Of a stretch of DNA of 64,000 nt, positions 1-15,616 are shown piece by piece. Made by a program: the position numbers and the translations under genes. Under the pieces are notes generated by a model. It saw only the letters and a program-made list of their open reading frames with translations. It made no database searches and was not told the DNA's origin. Each line of letters begins with the position of its first letter. Position 1 is the first letter of the stretch. Source of the DNA: an uncultured Pseudomonadales bacterium (GTDB lineage: Bacteria; Pseudomonadota; Gammaproteobacteria; Pseudomonadales; Azotimanducaceae); contig CAZRBP010000001.1 in the NCBI GenBank assembly GCA_964598305.1, positions 22,501-86,500 of the forward strand. Reading direction: 5' to 3'.

Positions 1-827
1 CCATGCGCAAAACCGACCTCGTAGTAGACGCCGCCCCGAGCCCCCGCCTCCCCGTGTGTGAAATCGGCGACAAGAAATCTGGACCTCCTGATCTCCGCAA
101 CAATCTCATCATCTATTCGGCCCACGTGCTCCTGCTCATCTATGACAACTGGCTCATATCCCGATTGCCTGATAGCTAGCTTAATGCCCTTGTCCCTCGC
201 ATCCCGCATCGACGGATCGAACCACATTGCCACAAACGCCCTTGATGATGCCGAGGCGTTTTGCTCCAGTGCCTCCAGGTGCGCGTAGCCCCGGAACGTC
301 AACGCGCATTCCTGCGCCGGATTATTGATGCCGTGGCGGTCAATTAGGTCTTGGTCACTTAGGTAGCCTAGGAGATATTCGAAGTCCTCTGAACCGATGC
401 AGCCGGAGTGTGCGAGAAGCTCGTAGAAGGTTCTTTCCGCATCGGTCAGGGACATCCCAATGTTCTCAGCAGTGCCAAATGTAAACTCAAAGGATATGCG
501 GGTTCCCAAAACTGACGATCTGCGCGAGACGTACTTGAGGAGTCCGTCAGCTCGCCTAAAAACGCTCGGATCCCTCCACCTCGTTGCCTCGTCGACGGTA
601 GCCCATGAGATTTCAGGGCAGCGCTCGCCGAGCGCCCGTTGCTCAACGAGCCATGTTGTAAGCCGCGCTTTCAGATGCTCGTCATGCTTGTTCAGCCCTG
701 GCTCCGCAGATCCGGAAATGAAATACATTCCCCCGGCTCGAGGGGAATCAAAGAGGCGCCCGTCCCTGCCTGTTGGGAGTTCGGTGGCCGATGTCCCCCA
801 AATTGCGCATTTAGCGCTCTCTAGCAT
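1..827 (-). CDS. Partial CDS (C-terminus lies beyond window edge): unknown N-terminal region fused to a nucleoside 2-deoxyribosyltransferase/TIR-like Rossmannoid domain
   Basis: Absent from the ORF track because it has no stop in the window. Hand translation of the minus strand from ATG 827-825 (in-frame TAG at 833-831) gives MLESACAIWG..FISGSAEPGLNKHDEHLKARLTTWLVEQR... It ends ..RAFVAMWFDPSMRDARDKGIKLAIRQSGYEPVVIDEQEHVGRIDDEIVAEIRRSRFLVADFTHGEAGARGGVYYEVGFAHG, a pattern typical of NDT-like/TIR-like nucleotide-processing domains. An alternative internal ATG lies at 455. Confidence 0.55.
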   Translation of the reverse strand, partial: MLESAKCAIWGTSATELPTGRDGRLFDSPRAGGMYFISGSAEPGLNKHDEHLKARLTTWLVEQRALGERCPEISWATVDEATRWRDPSVFRRADGLLKYVSRRSSVLGTRISFEFTFGTAENIGMSLTDAERTFYELLAHSGCIGSEDFEYLLGYLSDQDLIDRHGINNPAQECALTFRGYAHLEALEQNASASSRAFVAMWFDPSMRDARDKGIKLAIRQSGYEPVVIDEQEHVGRIDDEIVAEIRRSRFLVADFTHGEAGARGGVYYEVGFAH

Positions 828-1203
828 GCTCTATTGCTCGCCACCGAACTACCTAGAATTCCACCATTCCAATGCGCGTAGTCTTGTGGCGACCTGCTTT
901 CCTGCTAGCGTACAGCGGGCTTGGACGCTGCATACTACGGCTCCACCACCCCACAACAGTAGCTTCTTGACGCCCGTTGCACAGCCCGCGCTTCAGTGGC
1001 ACCAAACGCTTCTTTTCGCGGTTCCCGAAGGTCACAACTACTTCCCTTTGCGTCGATCAGTTAGCCTATCAACCGATCATGGTTGAAACAACTCGCTTCT
1101 CGACGCTGTACGGCGCAACACGAATCTACGTGCTGCTCGACGTGCGCCATTCGGTCAGGGAGCCATCGTTCAGGCGGGTCGGTCTAGGGCTAGGAAGGAT
1201 TGA

Positions 1204-2121
1204 TCACACCGTACCGCCAATCTCCAACCCCTCAATTGTGCTGAACACCTCAGCATAGCGCTGACGCTGCGCCTCCATCCAATCGATGAGTTCGTCCCAA
1301 CGTGTACCCTGTTGAACGGCAATTTCCTGCCAAGTCGTGTAGTAGTAGCCTCGGCTGGTCGATTGGTTGGGGCCGAGGGCTTGTTCGAGAACGTCGGCAT
1401 GCTTGGACATGAAGGGCGCGAGATGCTCGCTGTCGGCCCCCATCCGGCCGCGCAAGAACATGCCGGACGTCTTGCTGCCCACATACATTGACAGCACAAC
1501 CTCCCCGTCGGAAAGCATGGGAACCCAGACGTTCGAGTCGCGCGTAGGCGCGAACACGCCTGGGTGTCTCTCCAAGTAGCGGTTCCAAAACTGGCGCCTC
1601 AGTCGTGTCAACTTGGATTCGGCGGTAGCGGTTCTGTCTCGGAGGGTGATGTCCCAGTTGTTCGGCTGCTCAACGACATCAAACACTGGCGCAAAGGGAC
1701 TGTCCTCGATGCGCACCACGCGAAGCCGGACGGCGAAGAAGGCGAATTCATCGTTCGTATGCTCATTGAGCCATCGGACGGCGGACCGATGGGCTGCTTG
1801 GAAGTCCCGTGCGACCCAGACCACAGTTTTGGCCTCAATTCCAGCCAGATACGTGAGCACCTGCCCCAAGTGCCTATGGTCGGAAACCTCGAGTTGGTTC
1901 TCGATGACGACCCGATCACCCGTTCTGGAGTCCTCGGCGAGGATATCCACCGAGAAGTTGTCGACCGCATCTTCAGTGGCAATGGCCTTCAACTCGATCC
2001 CCAGTGCGTCGGAGAGAAAATCGAGGTGGTCGAAGAGCCAGGGGGTGAAGTCACGGGCCTCATCCGGCCACGCCTCACGGACCGGAGCGTCTGTGAGTCG
2101 GGTAAAGCGGGTTGTCGTCAT
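1204..2121 (-). CDS. PD-(D/E)XK nuclease-like N-terminal domain + DUF4268-type C-terminal domain protein
   Basis: The ORF track gives 1204..2160. I moved the start to ATG 2121 (MTTTRFTRL), which overlaps the stop of the upstream small ORF in ATGA. DILAEDSRTGDRVVIENQLEVSDHRHLGQVLTYLA is a restriction-endonuclease-fold core as I recall it from DUF4268-family proteins. Confidence 0.65.
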   Translation of the reverse strand: MTTTRFTRLTDAPVREAWPDEARDFTPWLFDHLDFLSDALGIELKAIATEDAVDNFSVDILAEDSRTGDRVVIENQLEVSDHRHLGQVLTYLAGIEAKTVVWVARDFQAAHRSAVRWLNEHTNDEFAFFAVRLRVVRIEDSPFAPVFDVVEQPNNWDITLRDRTATAESKLTRLRRQFWNRYLERHPGVFAPTRDSNVWVPMLSDGEVVLSMYVGSKTSGMFLRGRMGADSEHLAPFMSKHADVLEQALGPNQSTSRGYYYTTWQEIAVQQGTRWDELIDWMEAQRQRYAEVFSTIEGLEIGGTV

Positions 2122-2387
2122 GGGACTTCGTCGGCACCCCGTACGAGGACGTACGGCCATAGGCGGCCGTCGGTCGCCTTCCAGACGACATCATGCGCCA
2201 TGCTCTTCAGCCGACTCATGGCGTCCGGGTCGAAAGCGTCGGCCTCAATCTCGACCACGGCCCAAACCCATGCAGCGGAATCGTCGGTGGCGTCCAGCCC
2301 GTCCTCGACAACCCAAGATTGCACGGGGGCCGGCAAGCCTTCGGGCGCCTCAAGTTCGGATCGAATTTTGGCGGTGTCAGCGATCAT
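2118..2387 (-). CDS. Acidic 89-aa hypothetical protein, copy 1 (paralog of 7567..7839)
   Basis: This intact ORF reads MIADTAKIRSELE..VQSWVVEDGLDATDD..WKATDGRLWPYVLVRGADE. By eye it is ~4/5 identical to the 90-aa ORF at 7567..7839. Its stop overlaps the start of the DUF4268 gene (ATGA). I recognise no family motif. Confidence 0.65.
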   Translation of the reverse strand: MIADTAKIRSELEAPEGLPAPVQSWVVEDGLDATDDSAAWVWAVVEIEADAFDPDAMSRLKSMAHDVVWKATDGRLWPYVLVRGADEVP

Positions 2388-2417
2388 GACGTTAACTTAC
2401 GCTTCGGATAGGCTATG
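2126..2417. repeat. Direct repeat copy 1 (~290 bp) covering the acidic small ORF plus ~30 nt of its upstream leader
   Basis: It aligns along its whole length with 7584..7867 in the same orientation. I saw scattered substitutions and one 6-nt indel. Confidence 0.85.
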
Positions 2418-2482
2418 TTCAAACAGAGGACCAGCAACAGTGAAGATGAGAGTAAGACACGAAATTTGTTTCTCTCGTGCCC

Positions 2483-5400
2483 TCAGCGCCACGGAGCCAT
2501 GGTGGTGGCCGAAATTGGGGTATGAAACAGCGTTCTCTTGCGTCTATCGCGATCCTTCTTGATGGCATGGTCCAATCCCGTAGAACCAAGGACTCTCGCA
2601 AGTGTCCTCCGATACGGCGGATCAATGGCCGGGTCGATGTGTTTGAACCACGCAATGAACCGCCGGTCGCAATTCTCCTCCACACGCTTCCACACGTGCC
2701 GGGCTGCACGCTCGTCGATATCTGTCTGCCAGAACTCATGAAGCGCCGCTCGCGCTTGCACATTTCGCTGATAGTCCTGACGGCTGGCTTCCAAGACCGT
2801 GCGAAGCCATGGATCCATGGGCGGATTCAATTCAAGGATATTCCACTGCTCGTCGGCCTCCGCCGATTGGTCGCAGAGACCAAGCAATGTGATCGCCTTC
2901 GCGAGATCAACCGGACGCGGCTTTGACTCAAGGGCTTTGATCCGCTCCAGCAGCCAGTCCACGCGGTCGTGCTTGTGGGAGTAGTGGGAGATCCCGAGCA
3001 AGTCATCGTCCGTAGCAGCCAACGACAAACACTCGTCACACGCAGCGTCACTGGATTCGGATCGGGCCAATTCAAATGGAAACCCTTGGTACGAATCCCT
3101 CGAAAAGATGCTGGATTTGACTCCCGTCTGTATCGCAGCGAATGCTGATAGCGCAACTTCTGGAGCCTTGTCCTTCAGAGCCCTCATCGTGTCCATGACT
3201 GGAAAATTGTTCATCAGAGCTTTGTCGGCGCCGCGCCCTGCATTCTCGGTCCATCTCGACAGCCACTCTTCGACCGGATCTACGCCGCGCTCAACCAACA
3301 TCTTGACACAGTCCAGATAATGGATGTACCAGTAGCGAGGCATGCTCCAAGCGGTGGCGGCTGTTATCGCCTGCAGTTCACCCTCCAAGTAAGCAGCGAA
3401 TGCATCCAGCGCAGCGTCCGAAGAGGCACCCCATTTAACCCTTAGCGCCACGCTTTCATCGGCAAGTTCCGTTTTCGGGACGAGCTCCGGGCGAATCGAC
3501 TCAAGTTGCACTAGGGCGGTGGTTCGAGCGAGTTCATCTAGCTTGTCGGCCCAATTGTTGCCGGAGACCGGCGACACATAGGCCGATTCTGCGAACCGCG
3601 TCAAAGCATCCAAGTGTTGGCCTTCCGAAGCAATGAAGAGTGCTCGTCGTCGAATCTCCCTGTCTTCGTGAGTTGTCAGCATCGGCAGGAAATCCAGCCT
3701 TGCAATCGCTGCATCCTCAAGGCGTTGACCCACATAATCCAGCCAAAGAACGAGACCCTCTCGCGTTGCGCTGGAGATGTCCAGTTGGGCCAAGTCATCC
3801 TCTCCGGGCAAGCGGCAAACTAGCTGCCACTTATCACCCAGCGAGGCGTACGGAGCCGACAGGATTAGGGGAGCCTGTTGTGCGGGTTTCGCGTCGTACA
3901 ACCGCAGCCGCAAGGCACTGATTCCCAACTTGTTGCCCCGTTCCGCGTCTTCCCCCCTGGCCGCTGCCCGTTGTTCTTGATCGAACGCTGCGGCCAGAAG
4001 AGAACGGGATGTCGGGGTGATGATGGTCAGGATTTGCCGGAAGTTGTTCAGCAGCAGGTCGATTTCTCTGCCGCCGGGAGGCAACCCTTGCGCAATCAAG
4101 GTGTCGATCAGCTCAGCTCCCGATTGCGCGTCGACTTGTTTCCAGCCCTCTGGCGCGAGGTAGTCGACCACGGAGTCCAACGGGCTTCTTCTCTCCTTGT
4201 CCTTGGCGCCATCTCGTGCGATTGGTACGGCTGGGCTCTCCCCTTTGTCGTCCATTAAACCGACTGCGTTCTCTCGGGCAACGTCACTCAAGGCTTTGCG
4301 GAGCGTCGATGCGGCTTTCAGGGGAATGATGTGCCCGCACTGCTCGAGTCGACAGATCACCCTACCCAGTGCTTCATCCGCCTCGGACGGGTCCTCGGAG
4401 TTGATCCGGAGCATCCAAGCCACGTCATCCAGTTCGTGGGTCGATTCCATCACCGCCCGGCTCAGCGCCCATGCCTCTATGGCCGCCACGTAAGGCGCTC
4501 TCGCCAAATAGGAACATACTGCCACCGCACAACGAGCGAGGTAGTTCCAATTGCCTTCGACTTGGAACCGAACAGGCGCGAAATCCTTGGCTTGTGGAGA
4601 ACGCATCCAACGTTTGCAGCGAGACCTCACATTTCCTGCATTCCTGTTGTCCCCCCTTAACCTGATGTTGCCGTTCTGCCCCGGAGCGAAAGCGTCAAGC
4701 GCTGGTTCGGACCACGCTGTTCCCAACCATTCGACTAGCTTGGGCAGCAGAGCCTCGTGGAATCTGGGGTACTGCGCAGCGTTTGCCAGCGTTTTGATCA
4801 GCACTTCGTCCTTCATACCGCTTGTGCGATCGCTCAGCCAGTCGCGTTCCGCGACTCCTAGGACTAGATCCGGGTCAAGTCCAGCTAGTCGCCAAAGGTC
4901 TTCAAAGTCCGCACTGGAAAAATTCTGTTCATTGAGCCACCTGCACATCAGTTCGTACCGCAGCTGGCTGTCGGTTCCCTGCTCCACTAAGGCGATTGTT
5001 GTAGCTGCTCTGAGGATTTTCGAACCGAGGCTATGCGCCTTTAACGGGTCCAGGAACTCGGCAATGGTCCCGGCGAAGTCCGTGCGGGAGCCCTGCTTGA
5101 GTTCGGACAGTAGGGCGGCTCCAAGCACGTAATGCACTCTGTCCGTGTTGAGTTTGAACCTGTCGGGATCGGCTCCTGCCGTGAACCATCCCCCAGACGT
5201 CAACTGGAGGACAGCGGCCTCTAGATTACGTCCCGCCGACCCGCTGTCGGCCGAAAGCGTTGCCATGATGTTTCGACGGGTCACGGCGCGTTCCACATCA
5301 TTTCGGAGATCTCGCCCGAGATTCGCGATGAACACTCTCATGCGAGCATCATCCATCCCTACCCTTGGCCCCTGTCGGCTAATCCTGTCCTTCCAATCCT

Positions 5401-6829
5401 CGTAGATGACACGCTCAGCAGTGATGTCCCCGCTGTCCGCGAGTGCTTTGTGGTGTTTCAGTGCGATCGCTGCGAGGCGAGGCACGCGCATTAACTCCAA
5501 CACCGGCTTCGTCAGCACATCACGGTTAACGGTCATTGCTGTCAACAGTTCATCAAGTTCCGCGTCGGAAAAGCCCTCTACGAGAATCTCGATTGGTTTA
5601 GGTTCCAGGTTGGATAGGCAGTAAAGGTCGTCGCGCCACCGATTTGGCCAGCAACTGAGGACGAGCTTGTACATCCCCCCTAGATTGTCTTCCAGAAGCG
5701 GTTGCGCCCAGTCCGCCCAGTCACTGAACAGAAAGTTCTGGTTCAGGCCATCCACAATCACAAGGATTCGAGTGGATTCCCTTCCGCTCCTCTCCCAAAG
5801 ACTAAGCCGACGGAGCCAAAACTCTGCAGATCCGGGACGAGCCTGTTGCGAAAGCGCCTGCGCAATGTCGGCTCGGGCATCGGTTCCCTGAACGGATGTG
5901 GCAGGCAGGTACACGATCAAGGGCGAAGCTGGTTCCAGCGGGTTGATCAACTCATTGCACCAGTCCAGCGCAGCCCATGACTTTCCGGTGCCCTCGTCGC
6001 CTACAAGTGCCGCCATGGGGCTCCTTTTGTCAGCAAACCACGCGTTCAGCTGTTGACTGACACCAGCGCGGCGGATGACGGTGGACTCGCTGTCTCGCAG
6101 GTTGTGGTGGCCGCCCAGACGAGACTTAGCTTTGCGCAACGACGATTGCCCATCGTGCAACCAACGTTGGCACTGTTCGCGGCAACTGGCGTAGCCGACG
6201 GCCGGAGCCACCAAACGATCACGCCACATCGACACCTTCGATTCAAACTGATTGCTCTTCCGAATCAATTCCAAGGCTTGGTGAGTCTTGGACGACTGGT
6301 CTAGGCAGTTTCCACAGGCTTGAGGTGCTGCAGCAGAAATCGCAGCCAGATCGCACAGAGCGTTACTGTGTTCAGGCCAGTCCAATACGAGGACGTCAAT
6401 TCCCAATAGTTCTCCGTGCCTGACAAGCGCCTCCCGAAGAGAGCTGTCAACCTGCCGGGTCGACGCTAGCAACCAAAGGTCGGGAGGCGTTGTGAGGGTT
6501 GACGCTTCAGTCACCTTGGACAGCAATGCATCCTGCGGGAGGCTCGTACTCCGGCTGTACCTTTTGGCTTCAAGACTTGCCTTTACCAAGTTGCAAGGGT
6601 CGGAGCGAACGTCGCTACCCCCTTGGAGCCCGGACTTGACCACATGAAAGGGCTGCCCAGAGAGTTCGCTGAGTGCGGCCGCAAGAAAACCCTCGAATCC
6701 CGACACCCCGGTTGGCTTTAGTCCGTAGATCTGCTTCCAGAGCAGTTCCTGCGCATCCGCTAAGTCCATTGTCGCGCCCAAACGGCCAGCAACAAGCGTC
6801 GCATGGAATCCAGTTCTGTGCCAGTGCAT
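2483..6829 (-). CDS. STAND-class P-loop NTPase with N-terminal Mrr/PD-(D/E)XK-like nuclease domain and ~900-aa helical C-terminal region (Avs/NLR-like sensor candidate)
   Basis: A 1448-aa ORF with an alternative ATG at 6769 (MDLADAQ). Residues ~45-90, FEGFLAAALSEL..QGGSDVRS..ASLEAKRY, fit the Mrr_cat-type D..ExK pattern. Walker A is LVGDEGTGKS (nt 5978-6001). Walker B-like RILVIVDGLN lies ~75 aa further. A long Leu/Ala-rich C-terminus follows. Confidence 0.8.
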   Translation of the reverse strand: MHWHRTGFHATLVAGRLGATMDLADAQELLWKQIYGLKPTGVSGFEGFLAAALSELSGQPFHVVKSGLQGGSDVRSDPCNLVKASLEAKRYSRSTSLPQDALLSKVTEASTLTTPPDLWLLASTRQVDSSLREALVRHGELLGIDVLVLDWPEHSNALCDLAAISAAAPQACGNCLDQSSKTHQALELIRKSNQFESKVSMWRDRLVAPAVGYASCREQCQRWLHDGQSSLRKAKSRLGGHHNLRDSESTVIRRAGVSQQLNAWFADKRSPMAALVGDEGTGKSWAALDWCNELINPLEPASPLIVYLPATSVQGTDARADIAQALSQQARPGSAEFWLRRLSLWERSGRESTRILVIVDGLNQNFLFSDWADWAQPLLEDNLGGMYKLVLSCWPNRWRDDLYCLSNLEPKPIEILVEGFSDAELDELLTAMTVNRDVLTKPVLELMRVPRLAAIALKHHKALADSGDITAERVIYEDWKDRISRQGPRVGMDDARMRVFIANLGRDLRNDVERAVTRRNIMATLSADSGSAGRNLEAAVLQLTSGGWFTAGADPDRFKLNTDRVHYVLGAALLSELKQGSRTDFAGTIAEFLDPLKAHSLGSKILRAATTIALVEQGTDSQLRYELMCRWLNEQNFSSADFEDLWRLAGLDPDLVLGVAERDWLSDRTSGMKDEVLIKTLANAAQYPRFHEALLPKLVEWLGTAWSEPALDAFAPGQNGNIRLRGDNRNAGNVRSRCKRWMRSPQAKDFAPVRFQVEGNWNYLARCAVAVCSYLARAPYVAAIEAWALSRAVMESTHELDDVAWMLRINSEDPSEADEALGRVICRLEQCGHIIPLKAASTLRKALSDVARENAVGLMDDKGESPAVPIARDGAKDKERRSPLDSVVDYLAPEGWKQVDAQSGAELIDTLIAQGLPPGGREIDLLLNNFRQILTIITPTSRSLLAAAFDQEQRAAARGEDAERGNKLGISALRLRLYDAKPAQQAPLILSAPYASLGDKWQLVCRLPGEDDLAQLDISSATREGLVLWLDYVGQRLEDAAIARLDFLPMLTTHEDREIRRRALFIASEGQHLDALTRFAESAYVSPVSGNNWADKLDELARTTALVQLESIRPELVPKTELADESVALRVKWGASSDAALDAFAAYLEGELQAITAATAWSMPRYWYIHYLDCVKMLVERGVDPVEEWLSRWTENAGRGADKALMNNFPVMDTMRALKDKAPEVALSAFAAIQTGVKSSIFSRDSYQGFPFELARSESSDAACDECLSLAATDDDLLGISHYSHKHDRVDWLLERIKALESKPRPVDLAKAITLLGLCDQSAEADEQWNILELNPPMDPWLRTVLEASRQDYQRNVQARAALHEFWQTDIDERAARHVWKRVEENCDRRFIAWFKHIDPAIDPPYRRTLARVLGSTGLDHAIKKDRDRRKRTLFHTPISATTMAPWR

Positions 6830-6940
6830 TCGGGCGGTGACAAATCTAGTGCAAGCTCCTGCCGAATGGTCTGCGGGAGCCGTTTAGCGTTCCTCTTGAA
6901 AGTGCCCGTGGGTTCGAGAAAGCCCTGCAGGGGCGGCGGA

Positions 6941-7450
6941 CTACTCGTCATGAAGCGTCGCGAGCCACTCCGCAGAAGAGGTGAACGTGCGGGGTTCGGG
7001 AGAGTCGGCCCTGTCCCTGACACCGTCGCCAATGAGCACAGCCCATCGGACTTCCTGCATGGTAGCTACAGTCCACGCGTACAGGTGCTCTAGCCGATCG
7101 AGCTCGCGGAACACGTCGTGCGACGACGAAGTACGCAAATCGGCGAAAGCGTCCCGCAACTGCTGGAGTTCTTCAAGGCGATGCTTGAAGTAGCGTTCCC
7201 CCTGCTCCATAGCCTGGACGCCTTCGCTATCGGGATCGACGGGCGATTTGGGATCATGCTCTTTCATGGCTTCAGACAGTACGCTGCCTGCCCGATCAAC
7301 CACAGGGAGAAGACTGTCGTGCCCCTCGCGGAGTCCCTGCGCCTGGGCATCGAGCAGTTCGGCAGAGACAGGCATACCGAGGTCGGGACCCGACACGAGC
7401 GCGGGTAGCGCGCGGCTGATGTCACGTATGGTGTTCGATTGAGCCAGCAT
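6941..7450 (-). CDS. 169-aa hypothetical, predicted all-helical protein (possible HEPN-like Rx6H motif)
   Basis: An intact ORF with a GAGGGG SD 8 nt upstream of ATG 7450. It lies between acidic ORF copy 2 and the STAND gene on the same strand. RELDRLEH sits at aa 115-122. I recognise no other motif. Confidence 0.55.
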   Translation of the reverse strand: MLAQSNTIRDISRALPALVSGPDLGMPVSAELLDAQAQGLREGHDSLLPVVDRAGSVLSEAMKEHDPKSPVDPDSEGVQAMEQGERYFKHRLEELQQLRDAFADLRTSSSHDVFRELDRLEHLYAWTVATMQEVRWAVLIGDGVRDRADSPEPRTFTSSAEWLATLHDE

Positions 7451-7566
7451 TCAAAAGCCCCTCAGGGGACGATTCCAGCAGACACCCACAATAAACCGGA
7501 TTCGCGCCGGATTCGCGTTCTTGATGGCGAGGAGCGTCGCCTGCGCGAGAAGTTCCTTGGAAAGGC

Positions 7567-7839
7567 TCACGAAGCGACTTCGGCTTCGTCGGCTCCCCGT
7601 ATGAGGACGTACGGCCACAGGCGACCGTCGGTCGCCTTCCAGACGACATCACGCGCCATGCTCTTCAGCTGACTCATGGAGTCCGGGTCGAAAGCGTTGG
7701 TCTCGACCACGGCCCAAATCCATACGGCGGGATCGTCGGTGGCATCCAGCCCGTCCTCGACAACCCAAGATTGCACGGGAGTCGGCAGGTCTTCGAGTCC
7801 CTCAAGCTCGGATCGGATTTTGGCGGTGTCAGCGATCAT
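7567..7839 (-). CDS. Acidic 90-aa hypothetical protein, copy 2 (paralog of 2118..2387)
   Basis: This intact ORF reads MIADTAKIRSELEGLEDLPTPVQSWVVEDGLDATDD..WKATDGRLWPYVLIRGADE. It is the first gene of the minus-strand block. Confidence 0.65.
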   Translation of the reverse strand: MIADTAKIRSELEGLEDLPTPVQSWVVEDGLDATDDPAVWIWAVVETNAFDPDSMSQLKSMARDVVWKATDGRLWPYVLIRGADEAEVAS

Positions 7840-7867
7840 GGTGCTAGCTTACGCCTCGGATAGCATG
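7584..7867. repeat. Direct repeat copy 2 (~285 bp) covering the acidic small ORF plus upstream leader
   Basis: It aligns with 2126..2417. The leader CTATCCGA(A/G)GCGTAAG(T/C)TA upstream of the ATG is conserved in both copies. Confidence 0.85.
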
Positions 7868-8030
7868 CATTCTAGGCACCTCCCTTCGCCGCCCATGGCC
7901 GTTGCTCTCCCAGTGGGTGAATTGGAGCCAAGTCCCCATCGGCAACGGCACGGCCTTGAACGCCACTGCCGGTAGGCTCCCCCACATCCACACAGCCCGT
8001 AGTTGTCCCCTCACTCGGGTTGGGCATACC

Positions 8031-8657
8031 ATGCGCCCGTATAAAGGCAGAGCCAACCTAACCATGCGCCATGCTGCCAAATCGGACTTCGTGCCGGTCA
8101 GGATAGGCCCCACCAGCGCGCGGCAGTACATAACCGGGCTGCAAGCGCTGAACCTCATCGACCCGGAATTCGAGTCGAGCGGAGATTGGCACATGCAGGG
8201 CAGTTGGTTCGTGCCCGCCGAAGGCGTCCATCCCAGGGCCTACGAGGCGCTGCTGGCGAACAAGGCCAGGTTTGGATACGTGCTCGCCACGCCGGTGGAA
8301 CTGCTCGGCGAGGATCGGCTATTCGACGCCCGCCCCTCGCTGCAGCGCCTAGGCCATCCCGAGGGCGATTCAACCGAGCCCGTATGGGCAGCCCACCACG
8401 ACCGGGCCATTGTCGATGGCGCCTGGAAGTGGCTTCATCCCAACCCGTCCCTCTTTCCCGGCCCCTACTACGGCCCGGCGGTGGCCAACTGGCTTTGGAC
8501 GAATGCCCAATTCGCGCATCTGCACCGGCTCGCCCGCAAGGTTGAGAGCACCCTGTCCGGGAACAGACAGAAATTGTGGGCCACATGGATGCGCGACCTG
8601 ACGCCGGACGCCGAATGGGAAAGAGGCACCTACCTTAAAGGCACACGTGATCACTGA
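8031..8657 (+). CDS. Hypothetical protein (208 aa from ATG 8031; alternative ATG 8064)
   Basis: The ORF track gives 7902..8657. Third-codon positions are strongly G/C-biased, consistent with coding. It is divergent from the minus-strand block. I recognise no motif. Confidence 0.5.
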   Translation: MRPYKGRANLTMRHAAKSDFVPVRIGPTSARQYITGLQALNLIDPEFESSGDWHMQGSWFVPAEGVHPRAYEALLANKARFGYVLATPVELLGEDRLFDARPSLQRLGHPEGDSTEPVWAAHHDRAIVDGAWKWLHPNPSLFPGPYYGPAVANWLWTNAQFAHLHRLARKVESTLSGNRQKLWATWMRDLTPDAEWERGTYLKGTRDH

Positions 8658-9000
8658 AGGCACCGCCGGGAAGGCGAGTTCCACGCCGCTGCTCGATCAC
8701 TGATTCGGTTAGGTCTCCCTCAGCGCCAATGTCCCCTACGACAACAGCCTCAAGCCGACCGCAGTACCGCATGCGCACAACAGCGTCGGCCAAGACCGCA
8801 GACATTGCCCGGCCCGCTGTGAGACATTGGCCTGTCCGCAGCCGCAAAAAGGAGCGGGCCGACTTGGACATCCCGACATCAAAATCTGGAAAGCGCAGTG
8901 CAATCAAAGGCTTGAATTCATCCTAAGCCCATCTCAAGTTACTCGGAAAAAAGCGTCATCGCCTACATCTTTGTTAGCGCCCCCCTGCCAACATGGGGGC

Positions 9001-10038
9001 ATGCCACACGACGCACTCAGCAAGACCCTGTTCGCCCTGCCGCTGGTGGTGGCCGACCTCCTGCGCCTCATCGCCCGCGCCTGGGTCCACCTGCTCGACC
9101 TCGGCTCCCTCAGGCGCATGAGCGCCGAGCACCCGTCGGCCGACCTCTCCCAGCGCGTCGGCGACCTCGCCTGGCGGGCCTGCTTCCGGGCCGGGGAGTT
9201 GGCTGACGGGTCGCGCCCTTGGCTGTTGCAGCCAATAGAGTGCCAATCCACGCACGACTCGGGGATGGGGGGACGGCAGGCAGAGTACCTCGGTCGCCAT
9301 CTTCAGGCGCTGGAGAGTGACGGAACTCTGGCGAAGGAGGGCGAGGAGCCTCGGGTGCTGTCCGTGGTGGTTTACGACGGGGAGCGGCGGTGGCCCAGGC
9401 TGGCCGCCCCAGCAGGCATGCCCTCCCTCCTGCAGCCCGGCGGCTACGTGGTGCTTGACGCGGGCGCCGGGGAGTTGGAGGATTGGCCTCGTGGCAACCG
9501 GGTGTCTTCGTGGGTGCGGCTTCTGAGGGCGCGCAGCCCCGAGGAGCTGCTGGGACGCCTTGTAGATGCCATTCGGGAGTTTCCGGAGGCGCCGGACCAG
9601 GCCTTCCGGGAGGCGCTGCACACTTGGGCGCAGGCGCTACTCACGCGGATGGCGCCGGACGCGCATGCGCTGCCACCGCTGTTGGAGTTGGAGAACGGAC
9701 AGGGAGAACGGGACATGACGACGCTGCTTGAAGCGAACCTGAGCAAGTGGAGGGCGGGAGTGGTCCAGGAGGGCATCGCCCAAGGCATGGAACGAGGCAT
9801 GGAACGAGGCATCGAGCGCGGCGAGGCGCGGGCGCGGGCGGACCAGCGGGCGCAGCTGCGGCGCCAAGCGGGCCGCAAGTTTGGCGGCGGGGCGGCGGAG
9901 CGTCTGTCGGCGCTGATCGAGGGCGAATCGGACCCGAAGCGCCTAGCCGAGGTCTTGGACTGGATTATCGACTGCAGCACCGAGGACGAGTTTCTTGCCC
10001 ACGCTGAGCGCTGGGTCAGGCCCGGAGTTTCGCGATAG
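9001..10038 (+). CDS. Rpn-family recombination-promoting nuclease / putative transposase (PD-(D/E)XK, YhgA-like)
   Basis: The start was moved to ATG 9001 (MPHDALSKTLF), matching the family-typical N-terminus HD..fK.lF. The core reads RVGDLAWRACF .. IECQSTHDSGMGGRQAEYL. The C-terminus is a repetitive EGIAQGMERGMERGIERGEARARA tail. Confidence 0.75.
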   Translation: MPHDALSKTLFALPLVVADLLRLIARAWVHLLDLGSLRRMSAEHPSADLSQRVGDLAWRACFRAGELADGSRPWLLQPIECQSTHDSGMGGRQAEYLGRHLQALESDGTLAKEGEEPRVLSVVVYDGERRWPRLAAPAGMPSLLQPGGYVVLDAGAGELEDWPRGNRVSSWVRLLRARSPEELLGRLVDAIREFPEAPDQAFREALHTWAQALLTRMAPDAHALPPLLELENGQGERDMTTLLEANLSKWRAGVVQEGIAQGMERGMERGIERGEARARADQRAQLRRQAGRKFGGGAAERLSALIEGESDPKRLAEVLDWIIDCSTEDEFLAHAERWVRPGVSR

Positions 10039-10285
10039 CGAAACTCCAATGCGCCTTTGGTGCGCCTCGCCAAAGGCCGGTCCCTATGTGGGGCGCACTG
10101 CGTTTTCATGTCTCCTTTGACGCCGAAGACCGCCTCTACGATTGCGCACCGAACTCCTGCACAGGCTTCGGGCGGCATAGTGGGGACATACAAGCGGCAA
10201 TCAATGCCAAACAAGGACACTCCACACAGATCGGTGGCGTCGATCTACCGACAGGCGGAATGGAGCGCGTAAGGAGGAAGATACG

Positions 10286-10516
10286 ATGCGCTACGTATCC
10301 TTCATCCACCGGAGCAAGGCTGGCTATGGCGTCAGCTTCCCCGACATTCCGGGCTGCGTGGCGGTCGGGGACACAGTCGACGACGCGATTCGCCACGGAA
10401 GCGAAGTCTTGGCCTTCCACGTGGAGGGGCTTGCCGAGAATGGCGAGGCGATTCCGGAGCCACGCACAATTGAGGCCATCAAGGCCGAGGATACCAACGG
10501 GGTGACGGCATCCTAG
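10286..10516 (+). CDS. HicB-family antitoxin-like protein (UPF0150), no adjacent HicA
   Basis: MRYVSFIHRSKAGYGVSFPDIPGCVAVGDTVDDAIRHGSEVLAFHVEGLAENGEAIPEP matches the HicB N-terminal pattern. A strong SD (AAGGAGGA) lies upstream. Confidence 0.7.
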   Translation: MRYVSFIHRSKAGYGVSFPDIPGCVAVGDTVDDAIRHGSEVLAFHVEGLAENGEAIPEPRTIEAIKAEDTNGVTAS

Positions 10517-10524
10517 GCGGAAGT

Positions 10525-11823
10525 TCAAGGATTGGTGTGAATGGTGGATCCAGGATGCCGCTCCGGGATTGCGGGCGGGTTCTCCAGTCCCTCGAAAGCC
10601 AGGTCGTTAACGAACACTTGGCGCCATAGCTGCCGGCGCTGGCCTTCATCCATGCCCGCCTCGTTGCACACGTCCTCCCATCCCGACACAACCGCTGAGA
10701 CCTGCCGGTCGATGATGGCGCGGGCATCCTGCGGCGAAAGCTGGAACTTCGGTGCGGCGGCAAGGCAAAGCGAAAGCTGGCTTCGCCGCGCTTGGCCGTG
10801 GATCAGCATTCCCTGGGATGCTTCCCGCCCAACACGGGATTGGGGGCAGATGTCGTACGCGGGGGTGAGGGACAGGGCGCGTCCGTCCCAGAATGCCGCA
10901 TGGTTGCGCGCGTGGTCGTCGGTGTTCCCGCAGAGGATGTTGAAGGTCATGCGCCCGAACAATTCCTTGAGGTTGCGCCGCGGCGACTGGGCGCCTTGGC
11001 GCAGGGCGTCGGCCAGCTCCTCGTAGGACGCGTATTGCGCGAACATCTCATCGAGGTTGAGCAGGGACAAGCCAGAGAGCATGGCGCGGCGCGTCCACCC
11101 TCGGTCGGTTCGTTCGCGGTCGAAGCGTTTGACGAACAGGACATCCTTGCGCATGGCCTTGACCAGCTTGACGTCGGCAACGTCAAGGCCCGCCTTTTGC
11201 GCTAAGCGCATGGCTATGTACTCGGCCTTGATCACGTTGTGTGTGTCGCTGGTGGATGAGAACTTGGCGATGTGCTTGGCGTCCTCATGGGTGATGAGTG
11301 CCTTGGGCCTCGCGCCGCCGACTGAGGCGCTGTGGAGCAGTGCGCGGTCCAGCGCCGGCGGCAGGATGATGCCCTTTTCCACAGACTCAGCCGCATTGAC
11401 AAGCTGCTCAAGGGTGACTCCGGCGTCGTCTCGGGGGACATGGCGTCGCATTGATTGCTGGAAGTCCAAGGCGCCGGGGCGGTCTGACCCTGACTTGAGC
11501 AGGTAGTCTGCCTCCCGCAGGCCCTCATCCGCATTGCCGAGGGAGTGGTTAATGACGCGGCGCCCCCAAGCGTCGGGGGCGCTATCCCGTAGGGCGTTGG
11601 CAAGCAACAGCGGCGGCTCGGGTTCGATGGTTCCGGCGCGAAGGGGAAGCTCGGTGGGGTGAAGGGCTATTGCGTCGGCCCTGGCTAGGTAGTCAGGCGC
11701 GTAGGCAAAGGCCATCGGGCCTCCAGGCTCCTGCTCGACAAGCGTGCCCGCCGCGATGGGGTCGGTTCGGGAAGGTAGCCAAACCCAAACGGCGACTGGT
11801 CTTGGGTCCGCTTTTGTGGCCAT
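10525..11823 (-). CDS. hipA: Type II toxin HipA-family serine/threonine kinase
   Basis: The start was moved to ATG 11823 (MATKADPRPVAVWVW), 10 nt after the hipB-like stop. Motifs present are SVGGARPKAL, KFS..SDTHNV.KAEY and NTDDHARNHA. Confidence 0.85.
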   Translation of the reverse strand: MATKADPRPVAVWVWLPSRTDPIAAGTLVEQEPGGPMAFAYAPDYLARADAIALHPTELPLRAGTIEPEPPLLLANALRDSAPDAWGRRVINHSLGNADEGLREADYLLKSGSDRPGALDFQQSMRRHVPRDDAGVTLEQLVNAAESVEKGIILPPALDRALLHSASVGGARPKALITHEDAKHIAKFSSTSDTHNVIKAEYIAMRLAQKAGLDVADVKLVKAMRKDVLFVKRFDRERTDRGWTRRAMLSGLSLLNLDEMFAQYASYEELADALRQGAQSPRRNLKELFGRMTFNILCGNTDDHARNHAAFWDGRALSLTPAYDICPQSRVGREASQGMLIHGQARRSQLSLCLAAAPKFQLSPQDARAIIDRQVSAVVSGWEDVCNEAGMDEGQRRQLWRQVFVNDLAFEGLENPPAIPERHPGSTIHTNP

Positions 11824-11833
11824 GGGAACCCTC

Positions 11834-12172
11834 TTAGTAGTCGTGGGAAATCTCGGGTGCAGGGCGCCCGCTCCTCTTTGGAAGGAGCGTGAGCATGTCC
11901 TGCGCTTGTTTGAGGTGCACAGCCAAGCGTGGGCTGTCCGGCACGAAGAGCGGAACGCCCACCAGGGTTGCGGCCTCAAGGACGGCGCCGACCGAAACGG
12001 TTGGCGACCCGCCCTCGATCTTCCGAACCGTGCTTCGGCATACGCCCAAACGTTCAGCTAGGTTGGCCTCAGACCACTGGCGCTTCTTGCGGGCAATGCG
12101 AATCTGACTTGCCAGCATGTGCAGGGCGGCTTCCGTCACCGTGGAGTAAGTGCGTAGGTTTGCGGCTGCCAT
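11834..12172 (-). CDS. hipB: HipB-like XRE-family HTH antitoxin/transcriptional regulator
   Basis: A 112-aa protein with an HTH segment (WSEANLAERLGVCRSTVRKIEGG), immediately upstream of hipA. Confidence 0.75.
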   Translation of the reverse strand: MAAANLRTYSTVTEAALHMLASQIRIARKKRQWSEANLAERLGVCRSTVRKIEGGSPTVSVGAVLEAATLVGVPLFVPDSPRLAVHLKQAQDMLTLLPKRSGRPAPEISHDY

Positions 12173-12394: not shown

Positions 12395-13273
12395 ATGAAG
12401 CGGCTCCTGCAAACGACCATCGCCCTAGCGATGCTGGCTCTCCCGCTGGCTCCAGCCACGGCGACCGCGCAGCAAATCTGGTGGGAGCCCGGATTGATCG
12501 AGCACGTGCGGTTCCGGGGCACGCTGCGGGTCGGGGTCGGCATGTTCGAACCCTGGGTGATGTGCGACCGCAGCGGCGATCTGATCGGCTACGAGATCGA
12601 CCTCGCCCGCCAGCTCGCCGAGGACCTTGGCGTACGCATCGAGTTCGTGCGCATGAATTGGCAATACGTCATCCCGGCGCTGGTTGAGGGGCGGTTCGAC
12701 GTCATCATCAGCGGCCTGTCCATCACGCCGGCCCGCAGCCTGCTGGTCAACTTCTCAGTGCCCTACTCCGAATTCGGCACCGCCATCGTCGCCAACATCG
12801 GGCTCACGCCGGGTTTCGCCAGCGTTGAGGACTTCAACCGCGCCGACGTGACCTTTGCCGCCCGTCGCGGCACCACGGCGGAGGCGTTGGTCCTACGGGA
12901 GTTTCCGGAGGCGATGTTGCTGTCCTTCGACACCGACGCCGAGGTGCTGGACGCTGTGACCAGCGGGCAAGCCCATGCGACCGCTGCTGACCAAGTGATG
13001 GCAGCACGGTCGATCCACGAACATCCAAACGTGCTGCATCGTCCGATCGATACGCTGTTTGACCAGCTTCCCCAGGCGATTGCGCTGCGGCGAAGCGATG
13101 GCGATGCGCTGAACTACCTCGACAGTTGGGTCCGCCACTACCGGGTCAACGGCTGGCTTGCGGAACGGTGGCACTACTGGTTCGAGACCCGCGACTGGGA
13201 AGGCCTAGCGGCTTCGGGCTCGTCCCAGCGGGGCTGCGCAGAATCCTTCGTCGAGACGGCTACCGGCCAGTGA
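12395..13273 (+). CDS. ABC-transporter periplasmic substrate-binding protein, family 3 (amino-acid type)
   Basis: A signal peptide (MKRLLQTTIALAMLALPLAPATATA) is followed by an SBP_bac_3-like block (LRVGV..GYEIDLARQLAEDLGV..EFV..W..IPAL..G.FDVIISGLSIT). Confidence 0.75.
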   Translation: MKRLLQTTIALAMLALPLAPATATAQQIWWEPGLIEHVRFRGTLRVGVGMFEPWVMCDRSGDLIGYEIDLARQLAEDLGVRIEFVRMNWQYVIPALVEGRFDVIISGLSITPARSLLVNFSVPYSEFGTAIVANIGLTPGFASVEDFNRADVTFAARRGTTAEALVLREFPEAMLLSFDTDAEVLDAVTSGQAHATAADQVMAARSIHEHPNVLHRPIDTLFDQLPQAIALRRSDGDALNYLDSWVRHYRVNGWLAERWHYWFETRDWEGLAASGSSQRGCAESFVETATGQ

Positions 13274-14933: not shown

Positions 14934-15380
14934 TCAACGCTCATCGGCTTCAACCAGGACGCTGCGGAGACTACGTTTACCACGTTGCTGCGACCAATGC
15001 CAAAGGTGGGCTAAGCACAGCAGCACCCCACCGGTCACGGTGATCGGCTCCTCGTACGCGGACACCGCCTCGACGAACGCCGCCAGCAGCAACAGGCTGA
15101 GGCCGATCAACGCCGCACCAACGAAGGGCCGGTTGCCCTCCACGGACAGTGACTTCCAGACCACCCGGAGACTCACGGGAACCGCGGCGGCGGCTAGGAT
15201 GCGATGCAGCACCTCGCTTTCGGCGGCTAGGGCGGCCAACGGCATCAGCGTAACGAGCAGGGGCAGAGCGAGACAATGGAGCAGGCACAGCGTTGAGAGC
15301 CCCGCCGCGTACAGGTCAAGACGGGCATTCGTGGGCTGCGCCGAGCTAAGTGGGCTTTGGGATCGATTCATGGCACTCAT
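14934..15380 (-). CDS. MerC-domain membrane protein (metal transport-like), first gene of the operon with the Fur-family regulator
   Basis: There are four hydrophobic segments and an LCLLHCLALPLL motif typical of MerC-like proteins. It ends 45 nt upstream of the Zur-like gene. Confidence 0.6.
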   Translation of the reverse strand: MSAMNRSQSPLSSAQPTNARLDLYAAGLSTLCLLHCLALPLLVTLMPLAALAAESEVLHRILAAAAVPVSLRVVWKSLSVEGNRPFVGAALIGLSLLLLAAFVEAVSAYEEPITVTGGVLLCLAHLWHWSQQRGKRSLRSVLVEADER

Positions 15381-15385
15381 TCATT

Positions 15386-15398
15386 GATATGTTATAAC
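15386..15398. promoter_or_regulatory. Possible Zur/Fur-type box GATATGTTATAAC (palindromic core GTTATAAC)
   Basis: It sits directly upstream of the MerC-like/Zur-like operon start. The ATGTTATAAC core resembles the centre of Zur boxes as I recall them. The right arm is degenerate. Confidence 0.35.
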
Positions 15399-15420
15399 GC
15401 GCTTGCCCTCCCCTCAACGC

Positions 15421-15474
15421 TCCGTTCACAAGCTTCCGTTCACAAGCTCCGTTCACAAGCCTCCGTTCACAAGC
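15421..15474. repeat. Four tandem copies of TCCGTTCACAAGC (period 13-14 bp)
   Basis: The four 13-mers are exact, at 15421, 15435, 15448 and 15462. They lie in the divergent intergenic region between the MerC-like gene and the SDR gene. Confidence 0.9.
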
Positions 15475-15616
15475 CCTGAATCGTGGGCGTGTTTGGTGTC
15501 CGTCGCTGCTCTTCCACTAGCATCGCCTCGCGCCCGCTCGGTCAACGGCAGGTTCGGCAATCCAGTGTGACAGGCCCTACGTATAATCGGCTTTTTTTCG
15601 AGGTGGGAACATTGGC

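Follow-up and report, generated by a model that had tools for sequence, protein, structure and literature searches.

Gene content and composition of the block

The window analysed here, that is, the whole stretch of 64,000 nucleotides (nt) from an uncultured Pseudomonadales bacterium of the family Azotimanducaceae (contig CAZRBP010000001.1, positions 22,501 to 86,500 of the forward strand), opens with a block of defence-type genes at positions 1-7867. This block carries six open reading frames (ORFs), all of them on the minus strand. In 5' to 3' order these are an acidic ORF of 90 aa (acid1, 7567-7839), a helical 169-aa ORF (h169, 6941-7450), the gene of a 1448-aa STAND/NACHT-family NTPase (2483-6829), a second acidic ORF of 89 aa (acid2, 2118-2387), a DUF4268-type gene of 305 aa (1204-2121) and an ORF that resembles nucleoside 2-deoxyribosyltransferases (NDT-like, 3-827, 275 aa) and is still open at the window edge. 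An earlier note on this DNA had proposed that the small ORFs may work together with the STAND and DUF4268 nucleases as one multi-gene system. Our analysis points to another reading: the first 7.9 kb are probably a mosaic defence/toxin-antitoxin island assembled by recombination of independently moving modules, in which both acidic genes appear as orphans of a separate gene pair.

All six genes were recovered, from the ORF list and the translation of the left edge, in the order, on the strand and at the coordinates that had been claimed. The statement that every credible ORF up to ~7.87 kb lies on the minus strand was also borne out: the plus-strand ORFs of the block (up to 332 aa) run antisense to coding frames and do not show the GC3>GC1>GC2 order that marks the minus-strand genes, so that by codon-position G+C they are antisense shadows. 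The lower G+C content, previously judged by eye, was computed as 58.1% at 1-7867 against 64.9% at 12401-64000, and the minimum among 219 windows of equal length in this remainder is 63.2%. Composition and gene families both support a compositionally distinct island of defence-type genes. A search of the block for tRNA genes, Rfam families, sigma-70-like promoters and an excess of terminators found none of these.

The acidic gene family and its canonical partner

The second acidic ORF, reported earlier as a copy of the first, is a true copy. Both form a direct repeat of ~286 nt (2126-2411 and 7584-7863; 88-90% DNA identity) which spans the gene and 24 nt upstream of it, and nothing beyond. Their products (isoelectric point, pI, 4.05 for acid1) belong to a family, here called A1, that comprises 56 clusters at 90% identity with 12 invariant columns, and 293 clusters at 50% by profile search. 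In acid2 the substitutions L15P, P37S and V39A fall at nearly invariant columns of A1, and the C-terminus is shortened (...DEVP vs ...DEAEVAS). Among orphan acidic copies, the ratio of nonsynonymous to synonymous substitution rates (dN/dS) is 0.32-0.59, values obtained from small numbers that are at most suggestive of relaxed constraint.

The AlphaFold2 model of acid1 (pLDDT 87) shows the order alpha-beta-beta-alpha-beta. Foldseek matched it to generic small alpha/beta domains (the C-terminal domains of acyl-CoA synthetase and of the CDF transporter, and EscJ) at TM-scores of 0.45-0.67, and these were rejected as functional leads. By sequence, the acidic protein and its family profile retrieved nothing useful among PDB chains. 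The earlier impression that the acidic and the 169-aa ORFs have no family assignment proved right, since the searches of Pfam, NCBIfam, PADLOC and PHROG were empty for both. Furthermore, neither family was found in the viral contigs that were scanned for them.

One genome per species was scanned for the acidic family. This gave 76 loci (L003-L078, with the acidic gene at ~10001 in most of them), which were searched by tblastn with all the window proteins within 10 kb. Homologs of the STAND, DUF4268-type, NDT-like and AbiEi-like proteins appeared in 0 of the 76 loci, and a homolog of h169 in one (L010, 30% identity). The gene directly downstream of the acidic one is a different one in 66 loci: according to a hidden Markov model (HMM), it is a basic protein of ~169 aa, or a remnant of it, that we call the partner. 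In 49 loci it is full length, and in 44 of these the two genes overlap as ATGA, GTGA or TTGA; it is frameshifted in six, a short remnant in 11 and undetected in ten, which means that the downstream gene is decayed or lost in 27 of the 76. Thus, the acidic ORF does not co-localise with STAND or DUF4268 genes in 76 species-level genomes, and for this ORF the proposed partnership is largely refuted.

The acidic protein has a median pI of 4.5 and a charge of -7, compared with pI 10.4 and charge +9 for the partner. Several genomes contain two copies of the pair, and no third gene is conserved around it. The pair corresponds to no family in Pfam, NCBIfam, PADLOC or PHROGs. Regarding the partner, Pfam HEPN matches five of 15 members below the cut-off (best E 0.013), and the PDB search gave 2hsb (UPF0332) with E 0.045 and the HEPN entry 9xbd with E 1. 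The YYAxFH and RxxxDY regions are the ones aligned in the HEPN matches; R115, H116, A118 and D119 are invariant and Y120 nearly so, and the canonical HEPN Rx4-6H spacing is not present in the partner. Its length being that of h169, we also considered h169 as a diverged copy of the partner, an idea rejected after hhalign gave a probability of 0.1%.

Given the 4-nt coupling, the opposite charges, the multiple copies, the scattered contexts across phyla and the loss of the downstream gene, the canonical pair looks like a module of toxin-antitoxin type in which the acidic protein would occupy the place of the antitoxin. The metagenome-assembled genomes (MAGs) that carry it are labelled as Gamma- and Alphaproteobacteria, Acidobacteria/Bryobacterales, Spirochaetia, Latescibacterota, Rhodothermales and the cyanobacterium Aphanocapsa feldmannii. 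Many of their bin names resemble those of what we take to be sponge-symbiont studies. This distribution suggests horizontal spread within one habitat.

Some individual loci deserve mention. In L022, an acidic gene with a full partner (10001-10779) and another with partner positions 4-38 (15187-15542) lie on the same strand 5.2 kb apart, a tandem that resembles the window, where the acidic copies are 5.45 kb apart, but with no STAND gene between the copies. L003 (10403-12195) is an example of insertional decay: the partner is frameshifted and split by an insertion of ~1.3 kb with a 414-aa ORF. In L010 (10001-11208), the sole other locus with the acidic and h169 families close together, the acidic gene is followed by a four-residue trace of the partner (VSLP), a short ORF starting MPLTRNFRV that resembles a gene for a small regulator or an antitoxin, and then the h169-like ORF mentioned above. 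The genes behind truncated partners, read by eye, include a transposase-like ORF, an ABC-transporter binding protein, CoaBC/dut and an EamA-type transporter. They look like ordinary decay, and the idea of the acidic gene as a portable head for swapping defence cargo was rejected.

Probable recombination junctions behind both window copies

The two-gene toxin-antitoxin layout is not found in the window: at E<1e-2 the partner HMM finds nothing there, and no remnant follows copy 2. Behind copy 1, a GTG overlapping the acid1 stop (GTGA, 7570-7567) opens a 39-codon ORF (7451-7570, minus strand) made of 17 homologous and 22 unrelated codons, whose stop abuts the ATG of h169. Its first 17 residues, VSLSKELLAQATLLAIK, correspond to the start of the partner protein: one targeted test against the partner HMM gave 11.6 bits (E 9e-6), and the shuffled control fails. 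We consider this ORF a remnant of the HEPN-like partner.

A 48-kb contig from a related metagenome (L102) holds blocks of window positions 1-8.7 kb in a different order. The AbiEi-like gene (window 8657-7915, 94% DNA identity) lies at L102 1442-2176, 2.4 kb from the acidic gene. The segment with the acidic gene and the partner remnant (window 7863-7520, 92%) has a 36-codon remnant there, followed by a SLFN_AlbA_2 gene, and this orphan acidic gene is ~3 kb from the DUF4268 gene. The DUF4268 cassette (window 2134-1125, 89%) stands behind an unrelated 267-aa gene, and of h169 there is a 3' fragment (window 7053-6932, 92%) whose homology ends 9 nt past the h169 stop, giving way to unrelated DNA. 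The L102 blocks adjoin a HigB-like gene, an ECF sigma/anti-sigma pair, SLFN_AlbA_2, type I restriction-modification genes and an ankyrin-repeat gene of >524 aa.

In the window, the ATG of the DUF4268-type gene at 2121 overlaps the stop of acid2 by 4 nt, as ATGA. Since the acidic repeat ends at 2126 and the homology of the DUF4268 cassette starts at 2134, this overlap sits on a recombination junction. We propose that the partner of copy 1 was truncated to 17 codons at the place where a 5.06-kb cassette with h169 and the STAND gene begins, and that in copy 2 the DUF4268 cassette replaced the partner, in which case the junction would have recreated the ATGA overlap by chance. The 95-nt spacer between the STAND stop and acid2 (2388-2482) has the lowest G+C content in the block (45%). 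Homology to L102 begins inside this spacer, at 2427, 40 nt upstream of the acid2 ATG, and the spacer may be the acidic gene's own promoter region.

The h169 gene and the 5.06-kb cassette

The h169 gene and the STAND gene share a strand, with h169 upstream at a distance of 111 nt. The h169 product is a helical acidic protein of an independent family (84 clusters of 169-170 aa, mean column identity 71%) to which neither profile nor fold assigned a known function. Its AlphaFold2 model is all-helical (pLDDT 81), and a Foldseek search with it gave nothing better than E 0.19; Pfam, PADLOC, NCBIfam, PHROG and PDB sequence searches gave no match.

Both genes are contained in a cassette (2444-7506) that has 90.7% identity over 5064 nt (blastn) to positions 1111-6156 of contig L086, where it lies between a NYN-domain gene and a PRTase-CE gene and acidic ORFs are absent. 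The h169 gene was found next to a STAND gene only in this relative, whose STAND protein is 87% identical, on the common segment. In eight metagenome loci (L088-L095), h169 is accompanied by neither a STAND nor an acidic gene, and no neighbour is conserved. Six more distant STAND homologs, with identities of 70, 64, 62, 47 and 31%, are without h169, acidic or partner genes in their vicinity. Because of this, the adjacency of h169 and STAND is documented solely within one recent lineage. In three of the eight loci (L091, L093 and L094), a conserved 80-aa ORF is convergent to h169, on the opposite strand ~17-260 nt past its stop, and might be a neighbour of h169 in some lineages.

The STAND/NACHT-family NTPase

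The 1448-aa ORF (2483-6829, minus strand) contains an N-terminal PD-(D/E)xK-type motif and a C-terminal region of ~800 aa. The earlier numbering of its residues from the ATG at 6829 is valid for the ORF, but the start is more likely further in: Met 21 (ATG 6769) is the start of the NCBI call (1428 aa) and of most homologs, and the first 20 codons are probably untranslated. We recovered at least 179 clusters of homologs with a very uniform length of ~1430 aa, and relatives in Pseudomonas citronellolis and Serratia fonticola are named "NACHT domain-containing protein" by their sources.

In an alignment of 53 sequences of the family, K283, E87 and K89, the residues that had been singled out from the sequence, are real invariants, and D73 can be added to them. 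The Walker A motif reads GDEGTGKS (residues 277-284), with G277, G280, G282 and K283 invariant, and the Walker B region reads VIVDGLNQNF, with D360 and G361 invariant and N363 nearly invariant. Of eight N-termini from the family, six are matched by Pfam NACHT (PF05729) across model positions 2-163, and two of these, with 32.0 and 27.6, exceed the gathering score of 26.7. The protein of the window matches only AAA_22 in Pfam, with 20.6 bits for the full protein and 22.9 bits for residues 1-620 (cut-off 27). From the former label, "Mrr-like nuclease/STAND", the assignment to the STAND/NACHT family and the N-terminal nuclease-type motif D73/E87/K89 can be kept. Mrr_cat matches one of eight members, below the cut-off (E 0.035, 14.7 bits vs 21). 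Neither the protein nor its family profile found a relative among PDB chains by sequence. The surroundings of its homologs are defence islands, with type I and MmeI restriction-modification, Mrr_cat, ScoMcrA, SLFN-helicase, KAP NTPase, PRTase-CE and Abi_C genes as neighbours.

We read the 1448-aa protein, from its sequence, as a divergent, uncatalogued member of the single-polypeptide antiviral STAND class. Bacterial NACHT proteins that are encoded by one gene and carry a nuclease effector at the N-terminus give protection against phages (10.1101/2022.07.19.500537).

The DUF4268-type and NDT-like genes

The DUF4268-type protein matches the PADLOC candidate family PDC-S11 over its full length (PDLC04911, E 6.4e-86, residues 15-309 on model positions 2-311 of 318), and its gene is a stand-alone candidate defence gene. 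Its earlier description as a PD-(D/E)XK plus DUF4268 protein stands in part: Pfam, DUF4268 included, gave no family match even at E<=10, and the DUF4268 label is indirect, since it is carried solely through homologs on plasmids with 33-41% identity that the NCBI Prokaryotic Genome Annotation Pipeline (PGAP) annotates as DUF4268. The match to the NucS nuclease domain is weak (E 0.022), and nothing useful was retrieved from PDB chains by sequence. Independent gene calls on other assemblies of the locus place the start at MTTTRF, with the 4-nt overlap. The plasmid homologs are solitary, with no acidic ORF directly upstream, and the same holds for the relative in L102 (91% protein identity over 307 aa).

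The characterisation of the edge ORF (3-827, minus strand) as NDT/TIR-like is supported for its C-terminus, and the N-terminal half has no assignment. Residues 148-274, in its C-terminal half, have 38% identity (E 8e-17) to annotated nucleoside 2-deoxyribosyltransferases, and the PADLOC TIR effector is matched with E 7e-5; Pfam gave no match and the PDB chains, searched by sequence, nothing useful. A full-length homolog on a Bradyrhizobium plasmid (39% identity) runs 56 aa further, so that the edge ORF is short by ~56 aa. Both the DUF4268/PDC-S11 and the NDT-like proteins would be separate single-gene candidate effectors.

Genes flanking the block

As had been observed, Rpn, HicB and HipBA modules flank the block, and an AbiEi-like antitoxin-type ORF (7902-8657, plus strand; PADLOC AbiEi E 6.4e-17, no Pfam match) can be added to them. 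Among the proteins scanned none matched AbiEii, and the next gene is the Rpn/YhgA-like one (8827-10038, plus strand; Pfam Transposase_31, 27.2 bits vs cut-off 21); the two-component composition of AbiE is lacking. Then come a gene with a HicB-like N-terminal domain (10286-10516, plus strand; Pfam HicB_lk_antitox 5e-18), HipA (10525-11829, minus strand; Pfam HipA_C 4e-52) and a HipB-like HTH protein (11834-12172, minus strand; Pfam HTH_31 4e-9). The HicB-like ORF (76 aa) spans just the first half of the Pfam model, and HicA is absent from its vicinity. Antitoxin-type genes without toxins, namely the two acidic genes, the AbiEi-like and the HicB-like ones, lie side by side in this region.

PADLOC recognised PDC-S11, AbiEi and a TIR effector in this part of the window, and no NLR/Avs model for the STAND protein. 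The genes between 8827 and 12172, of toxin-antitoxin and recombination type, have host-like G+C content, and the housekeeping genes start at 12395 with SBP_bac_3. In addition, other dips in G+C (0.59-0.61 in 2-kb windows) occur at ~28-31, 38-41, 46-49 and 60-62 kb and may be other acquired segments.

Discussion

The co-occurrence of the genes in other genomes and the position of the junctions lead us to favour, with reasonable confidence, a mosaic island assembled by recombination of modules that move on their own. All the large genes are known kinds of single-gene defence module, and the pair, incomplete in the window, is the only new element. The biochemical activities considered in what follows, toxin and antitoxin roles included, are predictions.

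Judging from gene context, the acidic proteins would be the products of orphaned upstream genes of a pair in which the acidic protein would bind the basic partner directly and so neutralise it; as leftovers after toxin loss, the orphan genes may still act in trans. The h169 protein would be an independent small helical protein, tied to STAND only in a recent lineage. By analogy with what is established for bacterial NACHT and Avs proteins (10.1101/2022.07.19.500537; 10.64898/2026.01.04.697583), the C-terminal region of the STAND protein may detect a phage-derived cue, upon which the NACHT module would oligomerise in an NTP-dependent manner and activate the N-terminal PD-(D/E)xK-type nuclease, and the infection would be aborted.

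Could the acidic ORF and h169 nevertheless be functional partners of the STAND and DUF4268 nucleases, and the block one multi-gene defence system? The layout invites this idea, as each acidic copy heads a run of genes on the same strand, acid2 overlaps the DUF4268 gene by ATGA and the stop of the remnant abuts the ATG of h169; moreover, both acidic ORFs are intact with dN/dS below 1, and in L010 an acidic gene lies ~340 nt upstream of the h169-like ORF. It is nonetheless very improbable. Not one of the 76 acidic loci has a STAND or DUF4268 homolog, the STAND homologs at 31-70% identity do without either small ORF while h169 occurs without STAND in eight loci, and the DUF4268 homologs on plasmids and in L102 lack an acidic ORF directly upstream. 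The ATGA overlap falls exactly at a recombination junction (2126 vs 2134), and copy 1 keeps 17 codons of its real partner. A narrower proposal, in which h169 and STAND are a genuine two-gene system of one sub-lineage, with h169 as an accessory or regulatory protein and the acidic genes as unrelated orphans, can point to the 111-nt distance on the same strand, to the conservation of h169 as a family and to the fact that the pair moves as one 5.06-kb segment with 90.7% DNA identity in two different contexts. We regard it as unlikely, for the two occurrences are close relatives whose adjacency may be inherited, STAND homologs from 70 down to 31% identity lack h169, the eight h169 loci without STAND have no conserved neighbour, and the 3' fragment of h169 in L102 runs into unrelated DNA 9 nt past its stop.

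The nature of the acidic/HEPN-like pair itself can also be viewed differently. It might be a two-component unit of another kind, such as a small defence or stress system, with the orphans as pseudogene-like leftovers that have no role. The sub-threshold HEPN signal of the partner, an acidic protein with no DNA-binding or known antitoxin fold, and the three substitutions of acid2 at nearly invariant columns would fit this view, to which we give a small probability, as the tight 4-nt coupling, the opposite charges, the several copies per genome, the scattered contexts across phyla and the frequent loss of the downstream gene while the upstream one stays intact are better explained by a toxin-antitoxin-like module. 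More speculative, and in our opinion rather improbable, is the bolder version of that module: an undescribed toxin-antitoxin/abortive-infection family with a new antitoxin fold, horizontally spread over at least seven lineages seemingly of one habitat, whose orphans would be kept since they still act, either in trans against an incoming toxin or as translationally coupled brakes on nucleases (DUF4268 in this case).

Several points weigh against the mosaic interpretation or against parts of it. The assignment of the canonical partner to HEPN is tentative and draws only on sub-threshold matches, and it is the gene context that suggests the antitoxin role, because the acidic fold gave only generic alpha/beta matches. 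The 76 loci were found through the acidic gene, and the surplus of damaged partners over damaged acidic genes is biased by this ascertainment. Both orphan acidic ORFs of the window are intact and dN/dS is 0.32-0.59, so some function may have been retained. For the STAND sub-lineage with at least 87% protein identity, h169 and STAND are adjacent in both contexts seen. Finally, no PADLOC family, the NLR/Avs models included, matches the 1448-aa protein at E<=0.1, and the signature D[GAS]hDE after Walker B, which defines the NACHT clade (10.1101/2022.07.19.500537), is replaced by DGLNQ, with N and Q in place of both acidic residues.

For experiments, the STAND, DUF4268/PDC-S11 and NDT-like genes are best recast as single-gene units, with h169+STAND as one extra construct. 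More generally, the adjacency of genes in defence islands, even with overlapping start and stop codons, can be an accident of recombination, which the comparison of junctions between related contigs reveals. The pair, in turn, is a candidate for a new toxin-antitoxin-like family. Found in no fewer than 76 species-level genomes from widely different phyla, it can also serve as a handy marker of mobile DNA in these uncultured bacteria.

Comparison with known systems

The canonical pair resembles the HEPN-MNT modules (HepT/MntA-type, type II/VII) in being an operon of two overlapping genes with a patchy multi-copy distribution and in its basic helical protein, whose RxxxDY and YYAxFH regions are HEPN-like. 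The pair differs from them in the upstream gene, which encodes an acidic alpha/beta protein of ~90 aa with no family instead of a nucleotidyltransferase; moreover, the HEPN match is sub-threshold and the HEPN-like gene is missing from both window copies.

The STAND protein differs from the catalogued bNACHT/Avs (AVAST) proteins in that it has no PADLOC NLR/Avs match, stays below the Pfam NACHT threshold, reads DGLNQ at Walker B and has no relative of solved structure by sequence, being known here from its sequence alone. It shares with them the architecture of one large polypeptide with an N-terminal PD-(D/E)xK-type motif, a central P-loop module and a long C-terminal region, the setting in a defence island and, in members of its family, the Pfam NACHT scores. 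PDC-S11 appears to be a computational candidate system of PADLOC. The 305-aa protein of the window matches its models over the full length and behaves as a single gene in variable contexts, with the difference that here the gene shares 4 nt with an orphan acidic gene to which it is unrelated. Lastly, the acidic, AbiEi-like and HicB-like ORFs, none of which has a detectable cognate toxin gene beside it, are alike in this to the known decay of toxin-antitoxin loci into orphan antitoxins, such as AbiEi without AbiEii and HicB without HicA.

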